From: Candidatus Salivita marina
GTDB taxonomy: Bacteria > Pseudomonadota > Gammaproteobacteria > Pseudomonadales > Azotimanducaceae
Reading direction: 5' to 3'
DNA: 64,000 nucleotides
Assembly (NCBI GenBank): GCA_038144425.1
Contig: JAYQNS010000003.1
Coordinates: 190,790 to 254,789, forward strand
Below, piece by piece: positions 5,950 to 23,371 of the stretch. The notes under the pieces were generated by a model. The model worked only from the letters and a program-made list of their open reading frames with translations. It was not told the DNA's origin and made no database searches. The position numbers and the translations under genes are program-made. Position 1 is the first letter of the stretch. Each line of letters begins with the position of its first letter.

Positions 5950-6867
5950 ATGACCGCGCTCATGGAGGTGAGCCCCCGGGATGGGCTACAGAACGAGGCT
6001 AAGCCCGTCTCGACCGCGCAGAAGCTGGCCCTCATCGAGAGCGCCCTGGCGGCCGGGGTGAAGCGAATCGAGGTCACGAGCTTCGTCCATCCGAAAAAGG
6101 TCCCCCAGTTGGCGGATGCCGAGGCCCTGTGCGCAGCCCTTACGCCCCGCCCGGGAGTTTCCTTAACGGGGCTGGTCATGAACCTCCGCGGCGTGGAGCG
6201 GGCCATTGCCACCGAGGTAATCGACGATATCGGCATGGTGATTCCAGCGAGCGATGCCTTTGCCCAGCGCAATCAGGGCATGACCGTAGACGCCGCCTGC
6301 GAAGAAGCCCTTCGAGTCTTTGAGCGGGCTGCGCAGGCGGGAAAAAGCTACCAGCTCACCATCGCCGTGGCCTTCGGCTGTCCCTTCTCGGGCGCGACGC
6401 CCCTCGAAAGCTGCGTCGCCCTCGCAGAGCGCTTCGAGGGCGCTGGGCTCCGGGAGTTTGCCCTCGCGGACACCATCGGCGTAGCGGCGCCTCGTGAGGT
6501 GCGCAGCGCCTTTGAGGCCGTTCGGACCGCGCTTGGAAGCGCCGTCCCGCTACGCGCCCATTTTCACAACACGCGGGGCCTGGGCATTGCCAATGCGCTG
6601 GCCGCCCGGGAGCTTGGGGTGGAGACCCTCGATGCAAGCATTGGAGGTATCGGAGGATGCCCCTTCGCCCCGGGGGCAACGGGAAATATAGCGACGGAAG
6701 AGCTGCTCTACGCGCTTGAACGTATGGGCGAAGGGTTAGCTGTGTCCCTAACTGGGATCTTAAGCGCCGCAGCGCTTGTGGAGGAAGCGCTGGAGCGCCC
6801 CCTGCCGTCACTCGTCTACCGCGCGGGGCTCGCCCCCGGGGGCGAGGACACGGGCAGGGCTAGCTGA
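5950..6867 (+). CDS. hydroxymethylglutaryl-CoA lyase (HMGL-like)
   Basis: EVSPRDGLQNE, HFHNTRGLGIANALAA and GGCPFAPGATGN are HMG-CoA lyase TIM-barrel signatures. Confidence 0.88.
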   Translation: MTALMEVSPRDGLQNEAKPVSTAQKLALIESALAAGVKRIEVTSFVHPKKVPQLADAEALCAALTPRPGVSLTGLVMNLRGVERAIATEVIDDIGMVIPASDAFAQRNQGMTVDAACEEALRVFERAAQAGKSYQLTIAVAFGCPFSGATPLESCVALAERFEGAGLREFALADTIGVAAPREVRSAFEAVRTALGSAVPLRAHFHNTRGLGIANALAARELGVETLDASIGGIGGCPFAPGATGNIATEELLYALERMGEGLAVSLTGILSAAALVEEALERPLPSLVYRAGLAPGGEDTGRAS

Positions 6868-7520
6868 TAGCCCAGGCCGCGAACGGCCACGATACTTCCG
6901 GTCCCCAGCTTCTGCCGCAGCTTTCCCACTGCCACATCGATGTGCCGCTGCCCAGCAGCGAGGGGCTGGGATCCGCTATCCCGGGCGAGCATCTCCCGGC
7001 CCAGCACCTCCTGAGGATGGCGAAGGAAGGTCAGGAGCAGGTGAAATTCCTGCTCCGTGAGAGGGATGATCTCGCCCTGGCGCTCCAAGGCGCGGCGCTC
7101 CACCCGTAAGCGTGCGTTCCCAATAAGCAGGTCCTGGAGGGCACCCACGGAGGTCCCAAGCCGCCGTAGAATCACGCGAATGCGTGCGAAAAGCTCTGCT
7201 TCATCGAAGGGTTTGGTGATGTAGTCCTCAGCCCCGAGCTCGAGGGTAAGCACCTTCTCCAAGCTTTTGGTTTCACCACTCAGCATGAGAAAGGGGATGC
7301 CCCGGCTCCCCAACCAGCGCCCAAAGTCATAGCTCTTCCCGCTGCCCAAGTGCAGGTCAAGGAGGACCAGATCGGGGAGATTCTGGGCGGCGCGCTGCGC
7401 GTCCTCGAGCGAGTCCGCTACCGTGACTTCATAGCCTTCCAGTTGTAGGAGGGCCGCAAGGGCGCCTCGAAGTGCGGGATCGTCATCCACGACCAAAAGC
7501 TGAAACCGACGATCAGCCAC
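6816..7520 (-). CDS. OmpR-family response regulator (receiver plus winged-helix)
   Basis: Receiver motifs LLVVDDDP, LVLLDLHL and ITKPF. The C-terminal winged helix has LTEQEFHLLL and VRGLGYQL. The start is trimmed from 7751 to the GTG at 7520, preceded by AGGGGGGG, giving 234 aa. Confidence 0.85.
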   Translation of the reverse strand: MADRRFQLLVVDDDPALRGALAALLQLEGYEVTVADSLEDAQRAAQNLPDLVLLDLHLGSGKSYDFGRWLGSRGIPFLMLSGETKSLEKVLTLELGAEDYITKPFDEAELFARIRVILRRLGTSVGALQDLLIGNARLRVERRALERQGEIIPLTEQEFHLLLTFLRHPQEVLGREMLARDSGSQPLAAGQRHIDVAVGKLRQKLGTGSIVAVRGLGYQLALPVSSPPGASPAR

Positions 7521-7663
7521 GGGAACCCCCCCTGAAGAAAGGGTCAGTGTAAGCGGAGCTTGCAAGTTGTCTCCAGTGCTTACTCGCCCTTTTAAAGAAC
7601 CCAAAGGTTTTTTATCCTTCTCCTCACGAAGGGCTCTAGGAGAGGGGCTCGAGGGAGAGCGCC

Positions 7664-9157
7664 ATGGATGAAGGCCTTCAAGCACGCTTAGAGCAGGGCC
7701 TCGCTCAGGCCGCGGCAGACGGAACGATTGAGAGCCTTCTGGCGCTGCCAAAGGGCACTTCCTTTCTGTTCGTAGATGACAACGGGCAAATCACCGAAGT
7801 TTGGGGTGCCCGAGCCTCTTGGCAACGGGCCTGCGAAGGGCGGGCGCTCTCCTCACTCCTTGTTTCTAACGCCACCCGCGCCCCTCGGGCCCTCACGGAG
7901 CTCTTCGAAGCACTCGCCGCAGGGCGCGCCGCTGACATCTTTCCTCTATTCTTCGATGGCGAAGACGGGGCTCCGGACATCGTTCGCATTATCGCCCGTC
8001 CCCAGCAGCGAAATGGCGTGGCCGGGCATCGGCTTTGCCTCCTTGATGAGTCCCATCTTTGGAAAGCCCTCGATACGGCGATGGCTACGGTGCAGAGCCA
8101 GTCCGCCCTAGCGGAAACGGTCCCGGCACCGCTCCTTGTCCTCGACCCCCAGGGGCGTATCGAGATTCTTAACGATGCGCTAGCGCGGCTTCTAGGTCTT
8201 CCCGAGGGCGGGCTTCTGCAGCGCCCCCTGAGCGCCCTTGAGCGCTGGGCCCGACTCCCGGAAGGCATGCTCTCGGAAGCCATCAACGACGCGCTCGACC
8301 CAGAGGGGGCATCCGAAGGCCGGCCTCTGCGCCTACGCGATGAGCAGGGTAATCCTCACTGGCTGGTCCCTGCGGCGGCGCCCCTCCAGCAACCCGACGG
8401 GGCACGCACCATGGTCCTGTTCACGGAGGTCACGCACTTCGAAATGAGCAAGCAGGCTCAGGTCGACACGGAGCGGGAAGCTGCCCTCAACCTGCTCAGC
8501 CAGAGCATCCTCCATGATCTAAATAACGTGATGACGGTGATTTCCGCTGCGAGCCGCCTTCTTGATCAGCCCAGCGCCTACCCCACGGCGAAGGACGATC
8601 TAGCCGCCGCCGTAGAGGGTGCGAAGCAGCTCATTGCCAGGCTTCGGGATCGGGAGCTGGGCCGCCCTCGGCGTGCCGAGCATCAGTCCCTCGCGGAAGC
8701 CATTCGCTTAGTCTGTGAGGGCTTTCGCGCGACGCTCCGCTCGGACGTAATGCTAGAGGTCGGCTCCCTCATTGAGGCAGGCATCTTCGCCCCGCCGGGG
8801 GACTTCCAGCGCGCGCTGCTTAACCTCCTTAAGAACGGCGCGGAAGCCATCGAAGGGCGAGGCGTCATCACCGTCAGCAGCAACTGGCTGAAGCCCGGGG
8901 AGCAAATCCAGATCCTGGTGACGGATTCGGGGCGGGGCATGGTACCCAGCGAACGGGCCCGGGTTTTTGAACCCTACTTCAGCACGAAAACGGGGAACGA
9001 AGATCGAGGTCTGGGCCTGACTCAGGTGGCGCGCATGGCCGCTTCGGCCGGCGGTGAAGTGGAGGTGAAGTCCAGCGCCCCCGGAGAAACGGTGCTGGCC
9101 CTCACCCTGCCGGCCCAGCCATCGGTGTTCTACGACCGAGTCGACTCCGACGCCTAG
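7664..9157 (+). CDS. soluble PAS-domain sensor histidine kinase
   Basis: H-box SILHDLNNVMTVI. ATPase motifs LLNLLKNGAEA, DSGRGM and GLGLTQV. No transmembrane segment is visible. Divergent from the response regulator. Confidence 0.85.
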   Translation: MDEGLQARLEQGLAQAAADGTIESLLALPKGTSFLFVDDNGQITEVWGARASWQRACEGRALSSLLVSNATRAPRALTELFEALAAGRAADIFPLFFDGEDGAPDIVRIIARPQQRNGVAGHRLCLLDESHLWKALDTAMATVQSQSALAETVPAPLLVLDPQGRIEILNDALARLLGLPEGGLLQRPLSALERWARLPEGMLSEAINDALDPEGASEGRPLRLRDEQGNPHWLVPAAAPLQQPDGARTMVLFTEVTHFEMSKQAQVDTEREAALNLLSQSILHDLNNVMTVISAASRLLDQPSAYPTAKDDLAAAVEGAKQLIARLRDRELGRPRRAEHQSLAEAIRLVCEGFRATLRSDVMLEVGSLIEAGIFAPPGDFQRALLNLLKNGAEAIEGRGVITVSSNWLKPGEQIQILVTDSGRGMVPSERARVFEPYFSTKTGNEDRGLGLTQVARMAASAGGEVEVKSSAPGETVLALTLPAQPSVFYDRVDSDA

Positions 9158-9159
9158 TG

Positions 9160-10779
9160 CTAATCCGGATGCGTAGGCGGACGGGGATCCATGCAAGCCA
9201 CGGGAAGCAGGCACAGCACAAACACCGCAGCTATGACCCAAAACGCGTCCTGATAGGCCAGGATGTGCCCCTGCACCCAAACGGCTCGGCTCAGCATGGA
9301 GAGAGCCAGAGGTTCGTAGGGAAGCTCCAGCCAGTCCGTCAGCCCCCCCTGCGTAAGGGTCGGGAAGAGGGCCTTGAACCAGAGGTAGAGCTCGACGCCG
9401 TCCTGCTGTACCGCCGGGGCCATGGCCGCCACGTGATGGCTCGTCCGCTGATCCAGAAAAATCGCTAGACTGTTAATGCCAAAGGCGCCGCCGAGTTGGC
9501 GCAGGAAGTTTACGATGCCCGAGCCTTGCGCAAGCTGATGCATGGCCAGGGGACGCATCGCCGCCGCATTTAAGCAGGGGAAGATAAAGGACAGCCCAAC
9601 GCGCCCCAGCAGGGCCCACAGGCCGATGATGAGAAGGGGCGTTTGCAGATCAATCTGCGCCGTAAGCGCAGCCGAGATCCCAAAGACCGCGGTGCCAAAG
9701 AAGATCAGGGTCCGGGCAGACATTTGGTCCGAAAGGCGACCCGCGAGGGGGAAAAAGATCGCCATCATGAGGCCTGCGGGCAACATGAGGAATCCCGAGT
9801 CCGTGGCCTTCAGGCCCACAATGGTTTGCATGAACAGAGGCAAAAGGTAGGTCGATCCGTAGAGCCCAGCTCCGATGATAAAGGTCACCACCGACGCCGC
9901 TAGAAAGCGCCCGTTAGCGAACAGCTGCAGATCAATCATGGGATCCGGGCGGTGTAGCTCCCAGGCGATAAAGGCCGCTACGGACAGCGCCGTTACCGCA
10001 AAGAGGAGCGCGCTCAGCTGATCCTGAAAGTCATCCGCTGGCCCTTCGGAAAGGGCCACCAGCAGCGCGAGCAGGGCAATCGTAAGCAATACGACCCCGA
10101 CCCAATCAAACCGAGGACTCGCTGCGTCGGGCTCCCGCTCTGGCATAAACACCATGGCCAAAGGGATAGACAGGACAGCGAAAGGGACGGCGACGAAAAA
10201 AACGTAGCGCCAGCTCAAATGATCAATGAGCAGCCCTCCCAGCACGGGGCCAAGGGCCGGGGCGAGGACGACGCCAATGGAGTAGACGCCCATGGCCGTT
10301 CCACGGCGATGAGGGGGGAAGACCTGAAAGATTATTAGCATGGATACGGGGGTCATGAGCCCAGACCCTGCGCCCTGAATCAGGCGGGCCAGAATGAGCG
10401 TATCGCCGCTTTCGGCAATCCCGCCAAGCACGCTTCCCAGAAGAAAAATCACCATGGAGGCGAGATAGGCCGTGCGAATGCCGAAGCGCTCCACGCACCA
10501 GGCGGCAAGAAGCATGGTGACCGTGGTAGCCGCCAGAAAGCCCGTAGCAAGCCACTGAGCATCATCCGGGGTCATACCCAAAGCGCCCATGACGTCGGGA
10601 ATGGCGACGTTAATGATGGTGCCCGTGAGGAGCGTCGCAAAGGATCCGAGCATGGAGGCGAAGGTCACCCACCAACGATAGGCACTCCCGTAGCGGGAGA
10701 AGAGTTCCCGAATCCGCTGCCGCGCATCAATGTCCTCGGGAACGGAGTGAGGTCCGGGGAGGGTCGCCTCACTCGGCAA
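9160..10779 (-). CDS. MFS drug efflux transporter, EmrB/QacA (DHA2, 14-TMS) family
   Basis: 539-aa polytopic protein. Begins WWVTFASMLGSFATLLTGTIINVAIPDVMGALGM. Follows an HlyD-family gene with an 11-nt overlap. Confidence 0.88.
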   Translation of the reverse strand: MPSEATLPGPHSVPEDIDARQRIRELFSRYGSAYRWWVTFASMLGSFATLLTGTIINVAIPDVMGALGMTPDDAQWLATGFLAATTVTMLLAAWCVERFGIRTAYLASMVIFLLGSVLGGIAESGDTLILARLIQGAGSGLMTPVSMLIIFQVFPPHRRGTAMGVYSIGVVLAPALGPVLGGLLIDHLSWRYVFFVAVPFAVLSIPLAMVFMPEREPDAASPRFDWVGVVLLTIALLALLVALSEGPADDFQDQLSALLFAVTALSVAAFIAWELHRPDPMIDLQLFANGRFLAASVVTFIIGAGLYGSTYLLPLFMQTIVGLKATDSGFLMLPAGLMMAIFFPLAGRLSDQMSARTLIFFGTAVFGISAALTAQIDLQTPLLIIGLWALLGRVGLSFIFPCLNAAAMRPLAMHQLAQGSGIVNFLRQLGGAFGINSLAIFLDQRTSHHVAAMAPAVQQDGVELYLWFKALFPTLTQGGLTDWLELPYEPLALSMLSRAVWVQGHILAYQDAFWVIAAVFVLCLLPVACMDPRPPTHPD

Positions 10780-11872
10780 TTTTGAGCTCCACCATCATCC
10801 CCGGCTTCAGCGCCAAGGCCGTCTCCGGAAGCTCAAAACGCACCTCAATGCGCTGGGTTATTTTGGTGAAGTTGCCGCTGGGATTGGGATTGGGCAGCAG
10901 GGCGAACTGACTCGTCGCAGCCGAGCCTATGCGGCTGAGCGTGGCTTCCAGGGGCGCATTCGGGAAGGCGTCGACAATCACCTCCGCCTTCTTACCGAGG
11001 GCCAGCTTGGCGACATCAGTTTCCTTAACGTTCGCCGAAATCCAAAGCGTCCTTGGATCATGGAACATGGCGAGCCGTTGCCCCGGCGCCACGTATTCCC
11101 CGGGGTCCACAAAGATCTCGTCCACGATCCCCGAGGAGGGCGCTCGAAGCTGATGATCCCGAAGACGCACCGCGGCCTGAGCCGCTTCCAAACGCGCTTC
11201 CGCGAGGCGACCCTCCAAAGCCTCGAGCTCCGCTTGTAATATGGCCACCCGATCCCGACCCGCGCTTTCCTCCTCCAGCGCATTGCGCTCGGCACCCACC
11301 GCCGCTTCCGCTGCGGCGTGCTGGTCCCGGGCTTGGAGGAAGCGGCTTTTCAGCTGCTCATAAGCCTGGGGGGAAAGGGAGCCCGTAGCGAGCAACTGCT
11401 CTCCCCGACGGAAAGCGGCCGCCGCCTGCTCACGGTCGTGAGCATAGGCCTGGGCCTTGGCCTCTGCCGCCCTGAGCTCTGCAGCCTGCCCGGCTTGGCG
11501 CGATGCCGTCTGCCGCTCCGCCATGGTGCGTTGGCGCGCAAGAGAGTCGTGCTCCGCCTCGAGGGCCTCTACCTTCCGCAGAAGGCCGGCGTGGATGAGC
11601 GCCGCCATCTCATCGTCGAGCTGTACGAGGGCCGCGCCTCCTGGCACCTCAGCGCCTTCCTCCACAGGCACCTCCCGAACCCAGCCGGGAACCCGTGCGG
11701 AAAGGGCCACCATGGTGGCGCTGATGCGCGCATCGGTCACATAAATATGGGTCAGGCGATCGGCGAGCCAAGCGCCGAGGGCCAAGGTAGACGCGGCTGC
11801 CAGGGCAACGGCGAGACGATTCCTCTGCGCCGGAGACCTCCCCCTCTCCGCCGCCGATGATGCTTCAGGCAT
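10769..11872 (-). CDS. HlyD-family membrane fusion protein (EmrA-like)
   Basis: 367 aa with an N-terminal TM helix, a long Ala/Glu coiled coil and a C-terminal beta-barrel region (NFTKITQRIEVRFEL). Confidence 0.85.
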   Translation of the reverse strand: MPEASSAAERGRSPAQRNRLAVALAAASTLALGAWLADRLTHIYVTDARISATMVALSARVPGWVREVPVEEGAEVPGGAALVQLDDEMAALIHAGLLRKVEALEAEHDSLARQRTMAERQTASRQAGQAAELRAAEAKAQAYAHDREQAAAAFRRGEQLLATGSLSPQAYEQLKSRFLQARDQHAAAEAAVGAERNALEEESAGRDRVAILQAELEALEGRLAEARLEAAQAAVRLRDHQLRAPSSGIVDEIFVDPGEYVAPGQRLAMFHDPRTLWISANVKETDVAKLALGKKAEVIVDAFPNAPLEATLSRIGSAATSQFALLPNPNPSGNFTKITQRIEVRFELPETALALKPGMMVELKIAE

Positions 11873-20262: not shown

Positions 20263-21303
20263 CTAAAAGGGCACCTCACAGGCGGGATTCAAATCCACGC
20301 GCCGGCTGACGGCTCGATTTTGATGGGGCCCGGCGCACCAGCTGGGCATGGCCATGGAATAGAGGCCGCTGCCTCCGGCGACGAGGATGAGGATGTCCTC
20401 CGGCGCCCTAAAGGCCTGGCGCCGGCCTTCACGCTGGAAACTCCCCTGACTACGAAGCGCGCCGGGAACCTCGCACCGAGCCTGTAGCTCCGCCTGAAGC
20501 GACGGTCGATCCTGGCCCGCCGCCGCAAGCAGGGCGGCATGGTCAGGATTGAGTACCAGCACGGCTTGGCCACCCGTCAGCACCGCATTGTTACTCGCCG
20601 GACCGGCAAGCCCCGACGCCAGAATCGCCAGCAGCCCATCCCGGTCCTGCGCAAGATTTCCCGTAGCGCTGAAGATCAAAGACTGCGGCGCCTCCGCCCC
20701 AATCACCGTCACCACGCTATCCTCCGGATCAAAGCCAAGGCTGACGCCCAGAGTTGGGAAGGGGGAAGCCTCTGCTGCTTCCGCTAGGCAGTAAGTGAAT
20801 TTCCCCGGATGACCCAGGAGCGCCATATCTGACTCCCCGGGCCGGCCGCCGCCGATATTGATCATGGCGAGGCGCAGAGCTCGACCTAAGGTCGCGTTCG
20901 CTCGGTGCCCCGGACCCAGGGCCCCAAAGCCTGAGGCGAAACCCAGAGCCTCCACCACGGGCCCGGACAGCAAAATGAGCGGCGCCGTGCAGTGCGTAGT
21001 CGCCTGCATTTCCGTCAAATCAAAGGCGGGATCGAGCACCGCTTCGGCCACGGCGCAGAGCACGGGCATAAGCTCCGGGGGGCATCCCGCCATCACCGCG
21101 GCGGTGGCTAGGGCCTCGACGCTGGCGGCACCCCCCGCAGGCCCCATAGCGCCGAGCACCAGAGAACCGTCCAGGCCGCTGGCCAGCACCATGCGGTCGA
21201 CCCGTGCTTCCGTGGGAATGATCACGGGAAGGCCATCGGTGCAGCCCAGCTGATACAGCTGCTCCTGGGCGTCTGCTTCATCCCGGGCCTCAAGCACGCT
21301 CAT
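20263..21303 (-). CDS. uncharacterised Cys-rich 346-aa protein, translationally coupled to the UGA-containing gene
   Basis: The ATG at 21303-21301 overlaps the upstream TGA at 21302-21300 (ATGA). The sequence begins MSVLEARDEADAQEQLYQLGCTDGLPVIIPTEARV. I recognise no domain. Confidence 0.7.
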   Translation of the reverse strand: MSVLEARDEADAQEQLYQLGCTDGLPVIIPTEARVDRMVLASGLDGSLVLGAMGPAGGAASVEALATAAVMAGCPPELMPVLCAVAEAVLDPAFDLTEMQATTHCTAPLILLSGPVVEALGFASGFGALGPGHRANATLGRALRLAMINIGGGRPGESDMALLGHPGKFTYCLAEAAEASPFPTLGVSLGFDPEDSVVTVIGAEAPQSLIFSATGNLAQDRDGLLAILASGLAGPASNNAVLTGGQAVLVLNPDHAALLAAAGQDRPSLQAELQARCEVPGALRSQGSFQREGRRQAFRAPEDILILVAGGSGLYSMAMPSWCAGPHQNRAVSRRVDLNPACEVPF

Positions 21304-21851
21304 GAAGAGATGTCCTGACCCCGCCCCTGAAGCGTCTCCCACAGCCGCGGAGCAATCGCCTCGGCGAGGGTGGCCATGGCCTCCGCGCCAGAGCCTGCCA
21401 CGGGATGAGGGAGGAGCACCTGAGGGACGGTGCTCATGCCCGAGGCCTTCGCTACGAAGCGCCCCTGGGGCTCAAAAAGCGTGGTGACCAAAGCCACCGC
21501 TGGGAGCCCCTGCTGAGCCACTGCAATGCCGTCACGCACGGTGCCGGTGGTGCAGCTGCCTCAGTGCCCGTAAGCCGCGACGACCCCGTCGCTCGCTGCG
21601 CAGATCTCCTGCACCAGGGCATCCGAGGCCGTGATGGAGGCGTTACCTTTGTCCCATAGCTGGGTGGTGATCTGCGGAAAAGCGGCTTCCAGAGCTCTTC
21701 CTACGGCTTCGAGGAAGGGCACGGAGTCGGGAAAGCCGTTGGCCAGCAGGCCGATGCGTACAGGCCCCGTGGGGTCCACCGCAAGTGCCCCTGTATAAGG
21801 ACTATCCTCAGGGCCCGCGGGGGCCCGAGGGTCGATAAAGCGAAGGCTCAT
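21300..21851 (-). CDS. probable selenoprotein, 183 aa, with in-frame UGA (Sec) at 21563-21561 in an H-U-G-S-C motif (UGSC-family-like)
   Basis: ORF-track pieces 21561..21851 and 21300..21539 are in the same frame, separated by a TGA plus 7 sense codons (AAYGH-TGA-GSCTTGT-VRDGIAV). A GGGAGG RBS precedes the first ATG. There is none before the second piece. Confidence 0.7.
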
Positions 21852-21860
21852 AGTTCCTCC

Positions 21861-22541
21861 CTAGGTCATGCGTCCGTCCCCAGCCTCGAGATGGGCCAGG
21901 TGGCTGACGTCATTGAAGCTTCGTACCTTGATGCCCTCAGCCGTGAGGAGCAGCTGGCTAAGGGAGCCATTCTCCGCACCGGTAAAGGCAAAGCGCTCGC
22001 TGCCCGTGGCCAGGTGGAGCAGATGGGCGATGACGCCGCCGTGGACAAAGGCGGCGATCATGGTGTCCGGATGGGCCCGGTGGAGACGAGCGAGGGCACG
22101 GCTGAGGCGCGCGTCGAGAGCCTCAGGGCTTTCCCCACCAGGGATAACATTCCAGCGCTGCTGGCGCTGCATCTCGAGATAGACCGGATCGAGCTCTGCC
22201 ACCTTCCGGCGGAAGAGCCCACCTTCCCAAGCTCCGAGATGCACCTCATGAAGATCCGGATCCACGTCCACGGCGCAGCCCAGGAGCGCCGCCGTAGGGG
22301 CGGCCGTCTCCCGGGTTCGCTGAAGCTTCGTGGCATAGAGGGCGGCGAGGGGAAGATGCTGTAGGCGCGCCGCCACGGCCTCGGCCTGGGCCCGCCCGGC
22401 GGGATGAAGCTCCGGATCCCCTTGCCCGTCCACTAGAGGAAAGGGATTAGCAGGATCCGCGGCGCGGGATTCTCCGTGGCGAACCAGTAAAAGCTCCGTG
22501 GCCCCCGGGGGGCGGGTGAAGCGAGGCTGTCGGTAGGCCAT
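21861..22541 (-). CDS. histidine phosphatase family protein (phosphoglycerate-mutase-like)
   Basis: LLLVRHGES catalytic RHG motif and a later H in FVHGGVI. I prefer the ATG at 22541 because AGGAGA lies 6 nt upstream. The ORF-track ATG at 22547 abuts the RBS. Confidence 0.82.
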   Translation of the reverse strand: MAYRQPRFTRPPGATELLLVRHGESRAADPANPFPLVDGQGDPELHPAGRAQAEAVAARLQHLPLAALYATKLQRTRETAAPTAALLGCAVDVDPDLHEVHLGAWEGGLFRRKVAELDPVYLEMQRQQRWNVIPGGESPEALDARLSRALARLHRAHPDTMIAAFVHGGVIAHLLHLATGSERFAFTGAENGSLSQLLLTAEGIKVRSFNDVSHLAHLEAGDGRMT

Positions 22542-23371
22542 CGCCATTCTCCTGTCCTAGCCCGCGGCCACGGCCGCCGCCGGGGGCGACGCACGATCAT
22601 AGATTGGGTCGCGGTGGCCAACAAATGACCGCCTTCGCTCCAAAGATACCCCGTTCCATAGCCAAAGCCACCTTCCGTATAAGTCATGCGGTTATCACAA
22701 AGGACCCACTCCGTAGGCCGGGGCTGGCCCAGCCGTAGCGTGTTATCAAGGCTCGTGCAGAAGATCTGGCCTTCCAGCGCATCACCGAGCACCGAGGGCA
22801 TGTAGTCTGCGATGATGGCCAGGGCTACGGCATCGATGGAGTAGCCAGGCATACGAGCCCAAAGGAGGTTGCGGCCGCAGCCGCTCGGCTCCCCTTCCTG
22901 GGAAAAGCCGAACATGCCCTTCGCCCGCCGAAGCTCGATGGCGTGATGAAGGGTTTCTTCCCGGTGCTCCCGGTCGATACGAGGGCAGGATTCCGGAGCC
23001 GGTGCCTCCGGGCGATCCACCCAGGTGCCCGGGCCCGCCTCCGGGCGCTGACCCAACGCCCCCAGGACGGTAAAGATCGATTGACCTTGATGCCGACCCT
23101 GCACCTGGCCCTGGGTGACGTGCCGCCCCACGGCGGGCAGGCTGACATCCACGGTCAAGGCTTTCATTCCCTGGGTCAGGGACAGAAATTGCCCTGTGCT
23201 CCAGACGAGGGGCTTCTCCACCGCTTGCGCCAGCGCAGCCATGCCAGCGGCAAGCCCTACGCCGCCAAAAAGGCTACCGCCGCCACCGCTCAGGGCTGGG
23301 CGGAGGGGCAGGGAAAAGCGCGTTTCGGAGACGCGTTGAAGACCTAAAAACGCTTCTGCGGGGACTTGCAC
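22433..23371 (-). CDS. acyl-CoA thioesterase (TesB-like double hotdog). The 3' end is probably artefactually extended and the likely true stop is at 22557.
   Basis: N-terminal SLFGGVGLAAGMAAL and C-terminal GYGTGYLWSEGGHLLATATQSMIV fit a thioesterase-II-like fold. The last ~45 codons are R/P/W-rich and overlap the next gene. Confidence 0.72.
   Translation of the reverse strand: MQVPAEAFLGLQRVSETRFSLPLRPALSGGGGSLFGGVGLAAGMAALAQAVEKPLVWSTGQFLSLTQGMKALTVDVSLPAVGRHVTQGQVQGRHQGQSIFTVLGALGQRPEAGPGTWVDRPEAPAPESCPRIDREHREETLHHAIELRRAKGMFGFSQEGEPSGCGRNLLWARMPGYSIDAVALAIIADYMPSVLGDALEGQIFCTSLDNTLRLGQPRPTEWVLCDNRMTYTEGGFGYGTGYLWSEGGHLLATATQSMIVRRPRRRPWPRARTGEWRWPTDSLASPAPRGPRSFYWFATENPAPRILLIPFL

Follow-up and report, generated by a model that had tools for sequence, protein, structure and literature searches.

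A UGSC-containing protein had been reported by 2007 from Hyphomonas neptunium and from metagenomes (PMC1976440), and the UGSC family was later placed among the top five selenoprotein families in the Global Ocean Sampling (GOS) data, where 255 selenocysteine (Sec) forms were counted versus 21 cysteine (Cys) forms. It was also the most frequent selenoprotein family in non-marine samples; its function was given as unknown, and a 'UGSC/Unknown_1 fusion' was described (PMC2398784). A 2026 review lists UGSC with the NCBIfam model NF041046 and states that its functions remain uncharacterised (PMC13188914). Here we analyze a 64,000-nucleotide stretch of the Candidatus Salivita marina assembly GCA_038144425.1 (contig JAYQNS010000003.1, positions 190,790 to 254,789), from now on referred to as the window. 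Its minus strand carries, at 21851..21300, a gene that is a straightforward member of this family, already known since 2007-2008. Very probably, this is one gene for a selenoprotein of 183 residues in which a UGA codon, aided by an mRNA hairpin, is read as Sec, the product likely being the redox subunit of a two-protein enzyme. The gene shares with the described family (Zhang & Gladyshev; PF24696; NF041046) the GH-U-GSC-T motif, the alternation of Sec and Cys, its occurrence in aquatic bacteria and a second conserved domain that is fused or associated. It differs in that its clade falls below the NF041046 cutoff and that its structure model is flavodoxin-like, as opposed to the thioredoxin (Trx)-like guess of the 2008 paper. 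What is added here is modest: the Sec insertion sequence (SECIS) defined exactly, with its covariation and invariant core, a fold that is flavodoxin-like, the finding that a partner gene is universal, the gap at the NF041046 cutoff and the adjacency of selA, selB and selC in one genome.

Read on the minus strand, 21851..21300 is one frame that opens with ATG, runs for 96 amino acids to a TGA at 21563-21561, continues for another 86 and ends at a second TGA (21302-21300). The frame comprises 183 codons with a single in-frame TGA, in the context ...SDGVVAAYGH-*-GSCTTGTVRDGIAVAQQGLP... (asterisk, TGA). The features of the gene are as follows.

21300..21851, minus strand: coding sequence, very probably of a UGSC-family selenoprotein, complete, 183 codons; ATG 21851-21849, Sec-UGA 21563-21561, stop 21302-21300 (single frame; PF24696; conservation after the UGA)
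21856..21861, minus strand: Shine-Dalgarno sequence GGGAGG, 4 nt 5' of the ATG (direct sequence reading)
21561..21563, minus strand: in-frame UGA, very probably Sec, U97 of the U-G-S-C motif (TGA in 86 of 86 Sec-form loci; Cys in natural homologues)

An earlier note, made from the sequence alone, had recognized two open reading frame (ORF) pieces in a common frame, 21561..21851 (96 aa) and 21300..21539 (79 aa, GTG start), which match the mechanical ORF list. The strong GGGAGG ribosome-binding site it saw ahead of the first piece is present at 21861-21856, with 4 nt between it and the ATG at 21851, and sequence reading agrees with it that the GTG at 21539 has no Shine-Dalgarno sequence. Its central proposal, that reading the TGA as Sec yields a 183-aa protein with U-G-S-C, is borne out by the single 183-codon frame together with the comparative evidence. 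However, it should be noted that pairs of frames with just one TGA between them number about 48 in this 64% GC window, as expected of open non-coding frames at such a composition. Because of this number, and because the RNA fold of the window sequence is no better than that of shuffles, the raw pattern alone is not significant, and the case therefore stands on comparative evidence. TGA ends 11 of the 41 long ORFs in the window and is thus an ordinary stop there, so the genetic code is standard.

The 183-aa product, with U replaced by C, matches the Pfam family PF24696 ('UGSC family') at 138.6 bits (gathering threshold 25, E = 3e-40). Residues 6-175 align to profile positions 3-171 of 172, and since this match runs across the TGA, one domain covers both ORF pieces. 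The profile search that the earlier note had suggested thus gives a match above the gathering threshold, and the name it had given, 'UGSC family (seleno)protein', does exist as NF041046. JGI records on two UGSC pieces bear the names '6-phosphofructokinase' and 'predicted dienelactone hydrolase' (P0003, P0299); no domain match backs either name.

Homologues were sought among 5.8 billion proteins and in a species-level scan with one genome per species, which gave 358 relatives, the best 80 of which were examined. The 86 Sec-form loci analyzed consist of these 80 species representatives, two more assemblies from NCBI and four copies of the window locus from metagenomes that are near-identical to it. 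The best 80 of the 358 relatives belong to Halieaceae/Luminiphilus (the cultured HTCC2080 among them), Azotimanducaceae, other Pseudomonadales and Acidimicrobiia ('Ca. Poriferisocius' among them), and the closest among them, at 91-92% identity, are metagenome-assembled genomes (MAGs) of uncultured Gammaproteobacteria/Pseudomonadales. All 86 loci, from Gammaproteobacteria and Acidimicrobiia and thus from two phyla, carry TGA at the aligned codon. Seven natural full-length homologues of 175-188 aa (P0001, P0003-P0008) carry GH-C-GSCT instead, with Cys in the Sec column written as TGC, and the GH[U/C]GSCT motif is invariant across these seven Cys forms and the 86 TGA forms. Further, six database proteins of about 100-120 aa stop exactly at ...AAYGH; in the DNA behind two of these short calls (L005, L006), the TGA is followed in frame by GSCT[ST]GTVRD, and a second 'UGSC' fragment is called downstream. 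The check for single-gene homologues proposed in the earlier note was therefore positive, with Cys forms occurring as one full-length ORF and both short calls continuing past the TGA. Two MAGs labelled 'Klebsiella pneumoniae' (L068, CAMDVY010000517.1) and 'uncultured Enterobacteriaceae' (L080, CAZFZX010000018.1) have UGSC modules that group with the Halieaceae/Pseudomonadales type, and their labels look like binning or taxonomy errors. Three near-identical UGSC/partner relatives from ENA metagenomes (P0002, P0012, P0016) are scrambled by frameshifts, as in ...RRSAQRATGSSRL...; this points to assemblies of the same organism that are rich in indels.

Were the TGA a true stop, the locus would be either a pseudogene created by a nonsense mutation or a pair of small, independent genes of 96 and 79 aa, the latter being how gene callers and the NCBI, JGI and ENA records present it, namely as two 'hypothetical proteins', and it would agree with the normal use of TGA as a stop elsewhere in the window. 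The conservation pattern argues otherwise. The ratio of non-synonymous to synonymous differences (pN/pS) within the window's lineage is 0.07-0.11 after the UGA (codons +12 to +80, pS about 0.4) and 0.05-0.11 in the 60 codons before it; since the two values are equal, the part after the UGA must be translated and constrained, and codon-structured conservation reaches +60 codons past the UGA. The TGA is fixed at one codon in 86 loci of two phyla, the only start available to a second gene is a GTG lacking a Shine-Dalgarno sequence, the seven codons between TGA and GTG (GSCTTGT) are conserved, a single Pfam domain extends over both pieces and the Cys forms are single ORFs. We regard a true stop as highly improbable and, on this evidence, as effectively refuted. 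The chance that faulty sequencing or assembly produced the TGA in place of TGC or TGT is smaller still and practically negligible. The window does differ from sister assemblies by at least one homopolymer indel (C5 versus C6, near 22586-22582), but the 96-aa piece that stops at the TGA recurs unchanged in independent samples, on 61 contigs (the longest of 2.88 Mb) and in 125 collection blocks, and L001-L004 have the same TGA. Error is excluded because independent assemblies carry this codon.

The second line of comparative evidence is an RNA hairpin located 16-35 nt past the UGA. Its elements in the window are listed here.

21529..21547, minus strand: family-conserved putative SECIS hairpin CCG-G-CAC [CGUGC] GUG-A-CGG, consisting of two 3-bp helices on either side of an opposed G/A, with a 5-nt apical loop at 21540-21536 (RNAalifold; covariation)
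21531..21545, minus strand: invariant 15-nt SECIS core GGCACCGUGCGUGAC, codons G-T-V-R-D (zero synonymous variation in 85 distinct sequences)
21514..21563, minus strand: lineage-specific extension of the hairpin, CUGCA 21555-21551 with UGCAG 21525-21521 and UGAG 21563-21560 with CUCA 21517-21514 (folds in the window)

For its analysis, the 66 nt from the UGA onward were aligned without gaps for 72 distinct sequences. RNAalifold returned a single hairpin in which columns 17-19 pair with 33-35 and columns 21-23 with 29-31, the loop spans columns 24-28 and G20 lies opposite A32; the same hairpin had been read from the alignment by eye ahead of this run. Standard pairs are present in 432 of the 432 cells of the hairpin. 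At pair 17/35, 50 sequences have C-G and 22 have G-C; at pair 18/34, 71 have C-G and one has U-A. None of 500 shuffles matched the covariation score, and sliding the 3' partner by 1-3 columns as a control lowered pairing to 11-39%. The compensatory changes alter the protein, with ACC...GGC (Thr, Gly) becoming AGC...GCC (Ser, Ala) or UCU...AGU (Ser, Ser; L064). Residues +5 and +11 after Sec thus co-vary. Since their codons (columns 16-18 and 34-36, at 21548-21546 and 21530-21528 in the window) lie at the foot of the SECIS stem, it appears that RNA pairing dictates these coupled amino-acid substitutions.

Codon usage in the hairpin is equally restricted. Across 85 distinct sequences, codons +5 to +10 (T-G-T-V-R-D, ACC GGC ACC GUG CGU GAC) show zero synonymous variation, with the Arg always CGU, while the nearby variable Arg codons +16 and +17 are mostly CGC and CGG; in the same set, other invariant residues use 2-6 codons each, with a codon entropy of 0.4-2.3 bits. 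A Cys form serves as negative control: P0001 writes GTVRD as GGC ACG GUG CGC GAU, with three synonymous codons differing. A single copy of the 15-nt core is present in every one of the 86 Sec-form loci (about 1 Mb in total), and none in the four Cys-form loci. Within the window the core is likewise found once, at 21545-21531, and near-matches there are at chance level (6 vs 2.7 expected).

The bacterial SECIS (bSECIS) consensus (PMC13188914, Fig. 2A) calls for a loop of 3-9 nt on an upper stem of 4-16 bp, a G in the first two loop positions that is usually followed by G or U, a defined spacing and a minimum free energy (MFE) of -7.5 kcal/mol or lower. The hairpin has a 5-nt loop on six base pairs (3 + 3), the loop reads C-G-U-G-C and is invariant in 85 sequences, and 20 nt separate UGA and loop (columns 4-23). 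Rfam has no family covering it, and the one Rfam match in the window is a tRNA-Leu. The primary sequence of the hairpin is not known to be related to that of the fdhF element. Similar to the bSECIS of Escherichia coli fdhF (PMC13188914), it lies in the coding region directly 3' of the UGA and combines the short loop, with G-U at positions 2-3, and the 20-nt spacing with an upper stem that is short and carries an unpaired position. It differs in its small core (6 bp), which is invariant over two phyla, and in that the lower stem is not conserved. The stem-loop drawn by hand in the earlier note was in the right place, which is conserved with covariation, but in the wrong inner register and with an outer stem that is lineage-specific. 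Its inner helix CCGU[GCGUG]ACGG breaks in 22 of the 72 sequences, in all of which the shifted register given above holds, and its outer CUGCA/UGCAG stem, specific to the window's lineage, is paired in only 42.5% of cells family-wide. As a SECIS of the family, the hand fold is thus ruled out.

The structure was modelled with AlphaFold2 (AF2) on the natural Cys form P0001, which is 46% identical to the window protein. In this model (predicted local distance difference test, pLDDT, 92.7), five strands and five helices alternate (E-H-E-H-E-H-E-H-E-H), and the U/C-G-S-C motif occupies the loop and helix N-terminus following strand 3. The top 50 Foldseek matches listed against the PDB (E 6e-4 to 1.5e-2) are mostly flavodoxin-like sandwiches, and no thioredoxin fold is among them. 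The 'likely Trx-like fold' of the 2008 paper (PMC2398784) is therefore not supported. The predicted UGSC protein agrees with thioredoxin-fold UxxC/CxxU selenoproteins (Trx-like, peroxiredoxin (Prx)-like, SelW-like) in having U-x-x-C at a helix N-terminus after a β-strand, and differs from them in being a predicted five-stranded parallel α/β/α sandwich, the flavodoxin-like matches of which are the flavodoxin domain of flavodiiron proteins, WrbA and azoreductases.

Apart from one partner gene, the neighbors of UGSC genes are not conserved. The partner and the gene upstream are located in the window as follows.

20263..21303, minus strand: conserved partner gene, 346 aa; its ATG (21303-21301) and the UGSC stop overlap as ATGA (3' of UGSC in all 90 loci)
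21861..22547, minus strand: gene of the histidine phosphatase family, with its stop 9 nt before the UGSC ATG (PF00300, 141.9 bits)

In all 90 loci, whether of the Sec or of the Cys form, the partner lies 3' of the UGSC gene, and in 89 it is on the same strand; across loci, UGSC stop and partner start mostly overlap or abut. A word index returned 1953 partner homologues at 60-70% identity, and a library clustered at 50% contains 5395 representatives. In the partner, Cys105, Cys172, Cys342 and several His residues are invariant. The two proteins also occur fused: among five tested proteins of 530-560 aa, four have an N-terminal UGSC domain that is complete, whereas P0168, the fifth, has no Pfam match. 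Three proteins of 414-456 aa open with only the part of UGSC that follows the UGA, and these are read as Sec-form fusions the gene call of which starts past the TGA. Tandem duplications of the partner, 710-740 aa long, were found as well (P0146, P0147). No Pfam or NCBIfam family matches the partner even at E <= 10, and a sequence profile search of the PDB gave only noise, so that no kinship to a known family emerged. Its structure model (pLDDT 86.2) has no convincing relative in Foldseek; the best match, a class I fumarate hydratase (E about 2e-4), was rejected as too weak, with a template modelling score (TM) of about 0.3 and a root-mean-square deviation of about 16 Å. The fusions found here agree with the 'UGSC/Unknown_1 fusion' described before (PMC2398784), in which Unknown_1 may be the 346-aa partner.

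Several points weigh against reading the gene as a Sec-encoding redox subunit. Neither a tRNA-Sec (ARAGORN, Rfam) nor a signature of selA, selB or selD (motif regular expressions; tblastn with the SelA and SelB of L080) was detected in the 64-kb window, and no experimental evidence of selenium incorporation is reported for any UGSC family member in PMC2398784, PMC1976440 or PMC13188914. NF041046, an equivalog model and the sole NCBIfam match to the product, gives 96.6 bits, whereas its curated cutoff is 125. The 22 G-C cases at pair 17/35 come mostly from one clade, Acidimicrobiia, and the covariation there may thus reflect few independent events. The conserved core alone has an MFE of -4.9 kcal/mol versus the -7.5 of the consensus. 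For the window sequence taken alone, the RNA 3' of the UGA gives MFE z-scores of +0.33 to -0.87 against dinucleotide shuffles, which is no better than chance. Structural matches are weak, with a TM of at most 0.5 for UGSC (0.4-0.5 for the flavodoxin-like matches) and the low value given above for the partner. Lastly, we infer the probable redox role and the putative complex with the partner from the position of the motif, from synteny and from the fusions.

Some of these points can be placed in context. The absence of Sec machinery from a 64-kb piece is uninformative. The NF041046 cutoff is missed by all sequences tested (L011, L012, L015, L042, L080, P0001, P0003, P0004, P0007; 94-115 bits), and the below-cutoff scorers include HTCC2080, Acidimicrobiia, L080, L011 and four natural Cys forms. 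Given these scores, the window's clade is a sister branch of the NF041046 seed, and the whole partner-linked clade lies outside the equivalog model and inside the Pfam family. With the lineage-specific outer stem of the window, the MFE falls to -11.9 kcal/mol, and to -21.6 kcal/mol for the UGA to +50; single-sequence MFE was left out of the evidence because the z-scores are not significant.

As no Sec machinery was observed in the window, there is also a small chance, which we consider improbable, that the UGA is read through other than, or not only, as Sec. Cys or Trp could be inserted by near-cognate suppression, or termination could dominate under scarce selenium, with the hairpin a general stimulator of read-through. 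However, homologues that do not use UGA always have Cys at the aligned residue, inside a UxxC redox motif, the hairpin has the loop and spacing of SelB-type bSECIS elements, and the family has repeatedly been classed as a selenoprotein family (PMC2398784, PMC1976440, PMC13188914). Moreover, the relative L080 has selA, selB and tRNA-Sec beside its UGSC module. On its contig, the UGSC gene (5998-6525) is followed by the partner (6525-7595), a 252-aa ORF without family, selA (8252-9673; TIGR00474, 581 bits vs cutoff 268), selB (9604-11598; TIGR00475, 432 bits vs cutoff 242) and tRNA-Sec (11656-11747; RF01852, 62.7 bits vs 47, Rfam). selD was not seen within the 12.5 kb of this contig examined. 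ARAGORN reported no tRNA-Sec on 60 loci, although Rfam detects the one in L080. The segment 5998-11747 resembles a compact cluster for selenium utilisation that is organised around the UGSC module.

Decoding as Sec being the favored reading, translation would start at the ATG behind the GGGAGG site, and codon 97 would be decoded as Sec and not as a stop. By the established bacterial mechanism, the hairpin would recruit SelB with Sec-tRNA(Sec) to the ribosome. The product would adopt a flavodoxin-like α/β fold with Sec97 and Cys100 at the N-terminus of the helix that follows the third strand, a position typical of redox-active UxxC/CxxC pairs, which presumably would cycle through a selenenylsulfide. 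UGSC would then most likely be the redox-active subunit of a two-protein enzyme, with the 346-aa partner as second subunit.

In GrdB and PrdB, the selenoprotein B subunits of glycine and D-proline reductase, the protein acts together with a separately encoded partner subunit. Their domain (PF07355) shares a UxxC Sec motif with UGSC (PMC2398784, Table 2). As to differences, UGSC is much smaller (183 aa), its hosts are lineages of aerobic aquatic heterotrophs, and PF07355 is absent from it even at E <= 10, a threshold at which no Pfam family other than its own was matched. The likeness may be taken as an analogy only.

The histidine phosphatase gene upstream is lineage-specific and outside the conserved module, and L005, L006, L087 and L089 have different neighbors. 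Beyond it, a thioesterase-like ORF (22433-23371) has near its 3' end (about 22582-22586, minus strand) a run of five C versus six in the sister assemblies L001, L002 and L004. The frameshift that results swaps the normal C-terminus (...RRPPAAAVAAG*) and lengthens the ORF by about 41 codons into the histidine phosphatase gene; the C5 run reflects either an error in sequencing the homopolymer or a variant of the strain. A tRNA-Leu (anticodon UAA) at 372-458 on the plus strand is the sole RNA gene detected in the window (ARAGORN, Rfam).

At a practical level, the finding corrects an annotation, as all public records split this gene and dozens of orthologues into two 'hypothetical proteins', and NF041046 at its cutoff misses a whole clade. 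We tentatively hypothesize, as a possibility somewhat short of even, that UGSC and the 346-aa protein together make up, as its two subunits, an uncharacterised selenoenzyme found widely among aerobic aquatic bacteria, in which the selenenylsulfide module would have a flavodoxin rather than a thioredoxin fold and the SECIS would dictate protein sequence, and which in some lineages may travel with selA-selB-selC as a selenium island. Such an island, if real, would be a self-contained selenium-utilisation unit with the UGSC enzyme as its main client. UGSC is among the most abundant selenoprotein families of aquatic metagenomes; its strict pairing with the partner, the flavodoxin-like fold predicted for it and the invariant core of its SECIS provide handles on its reaction and on the automatic detection of its members.

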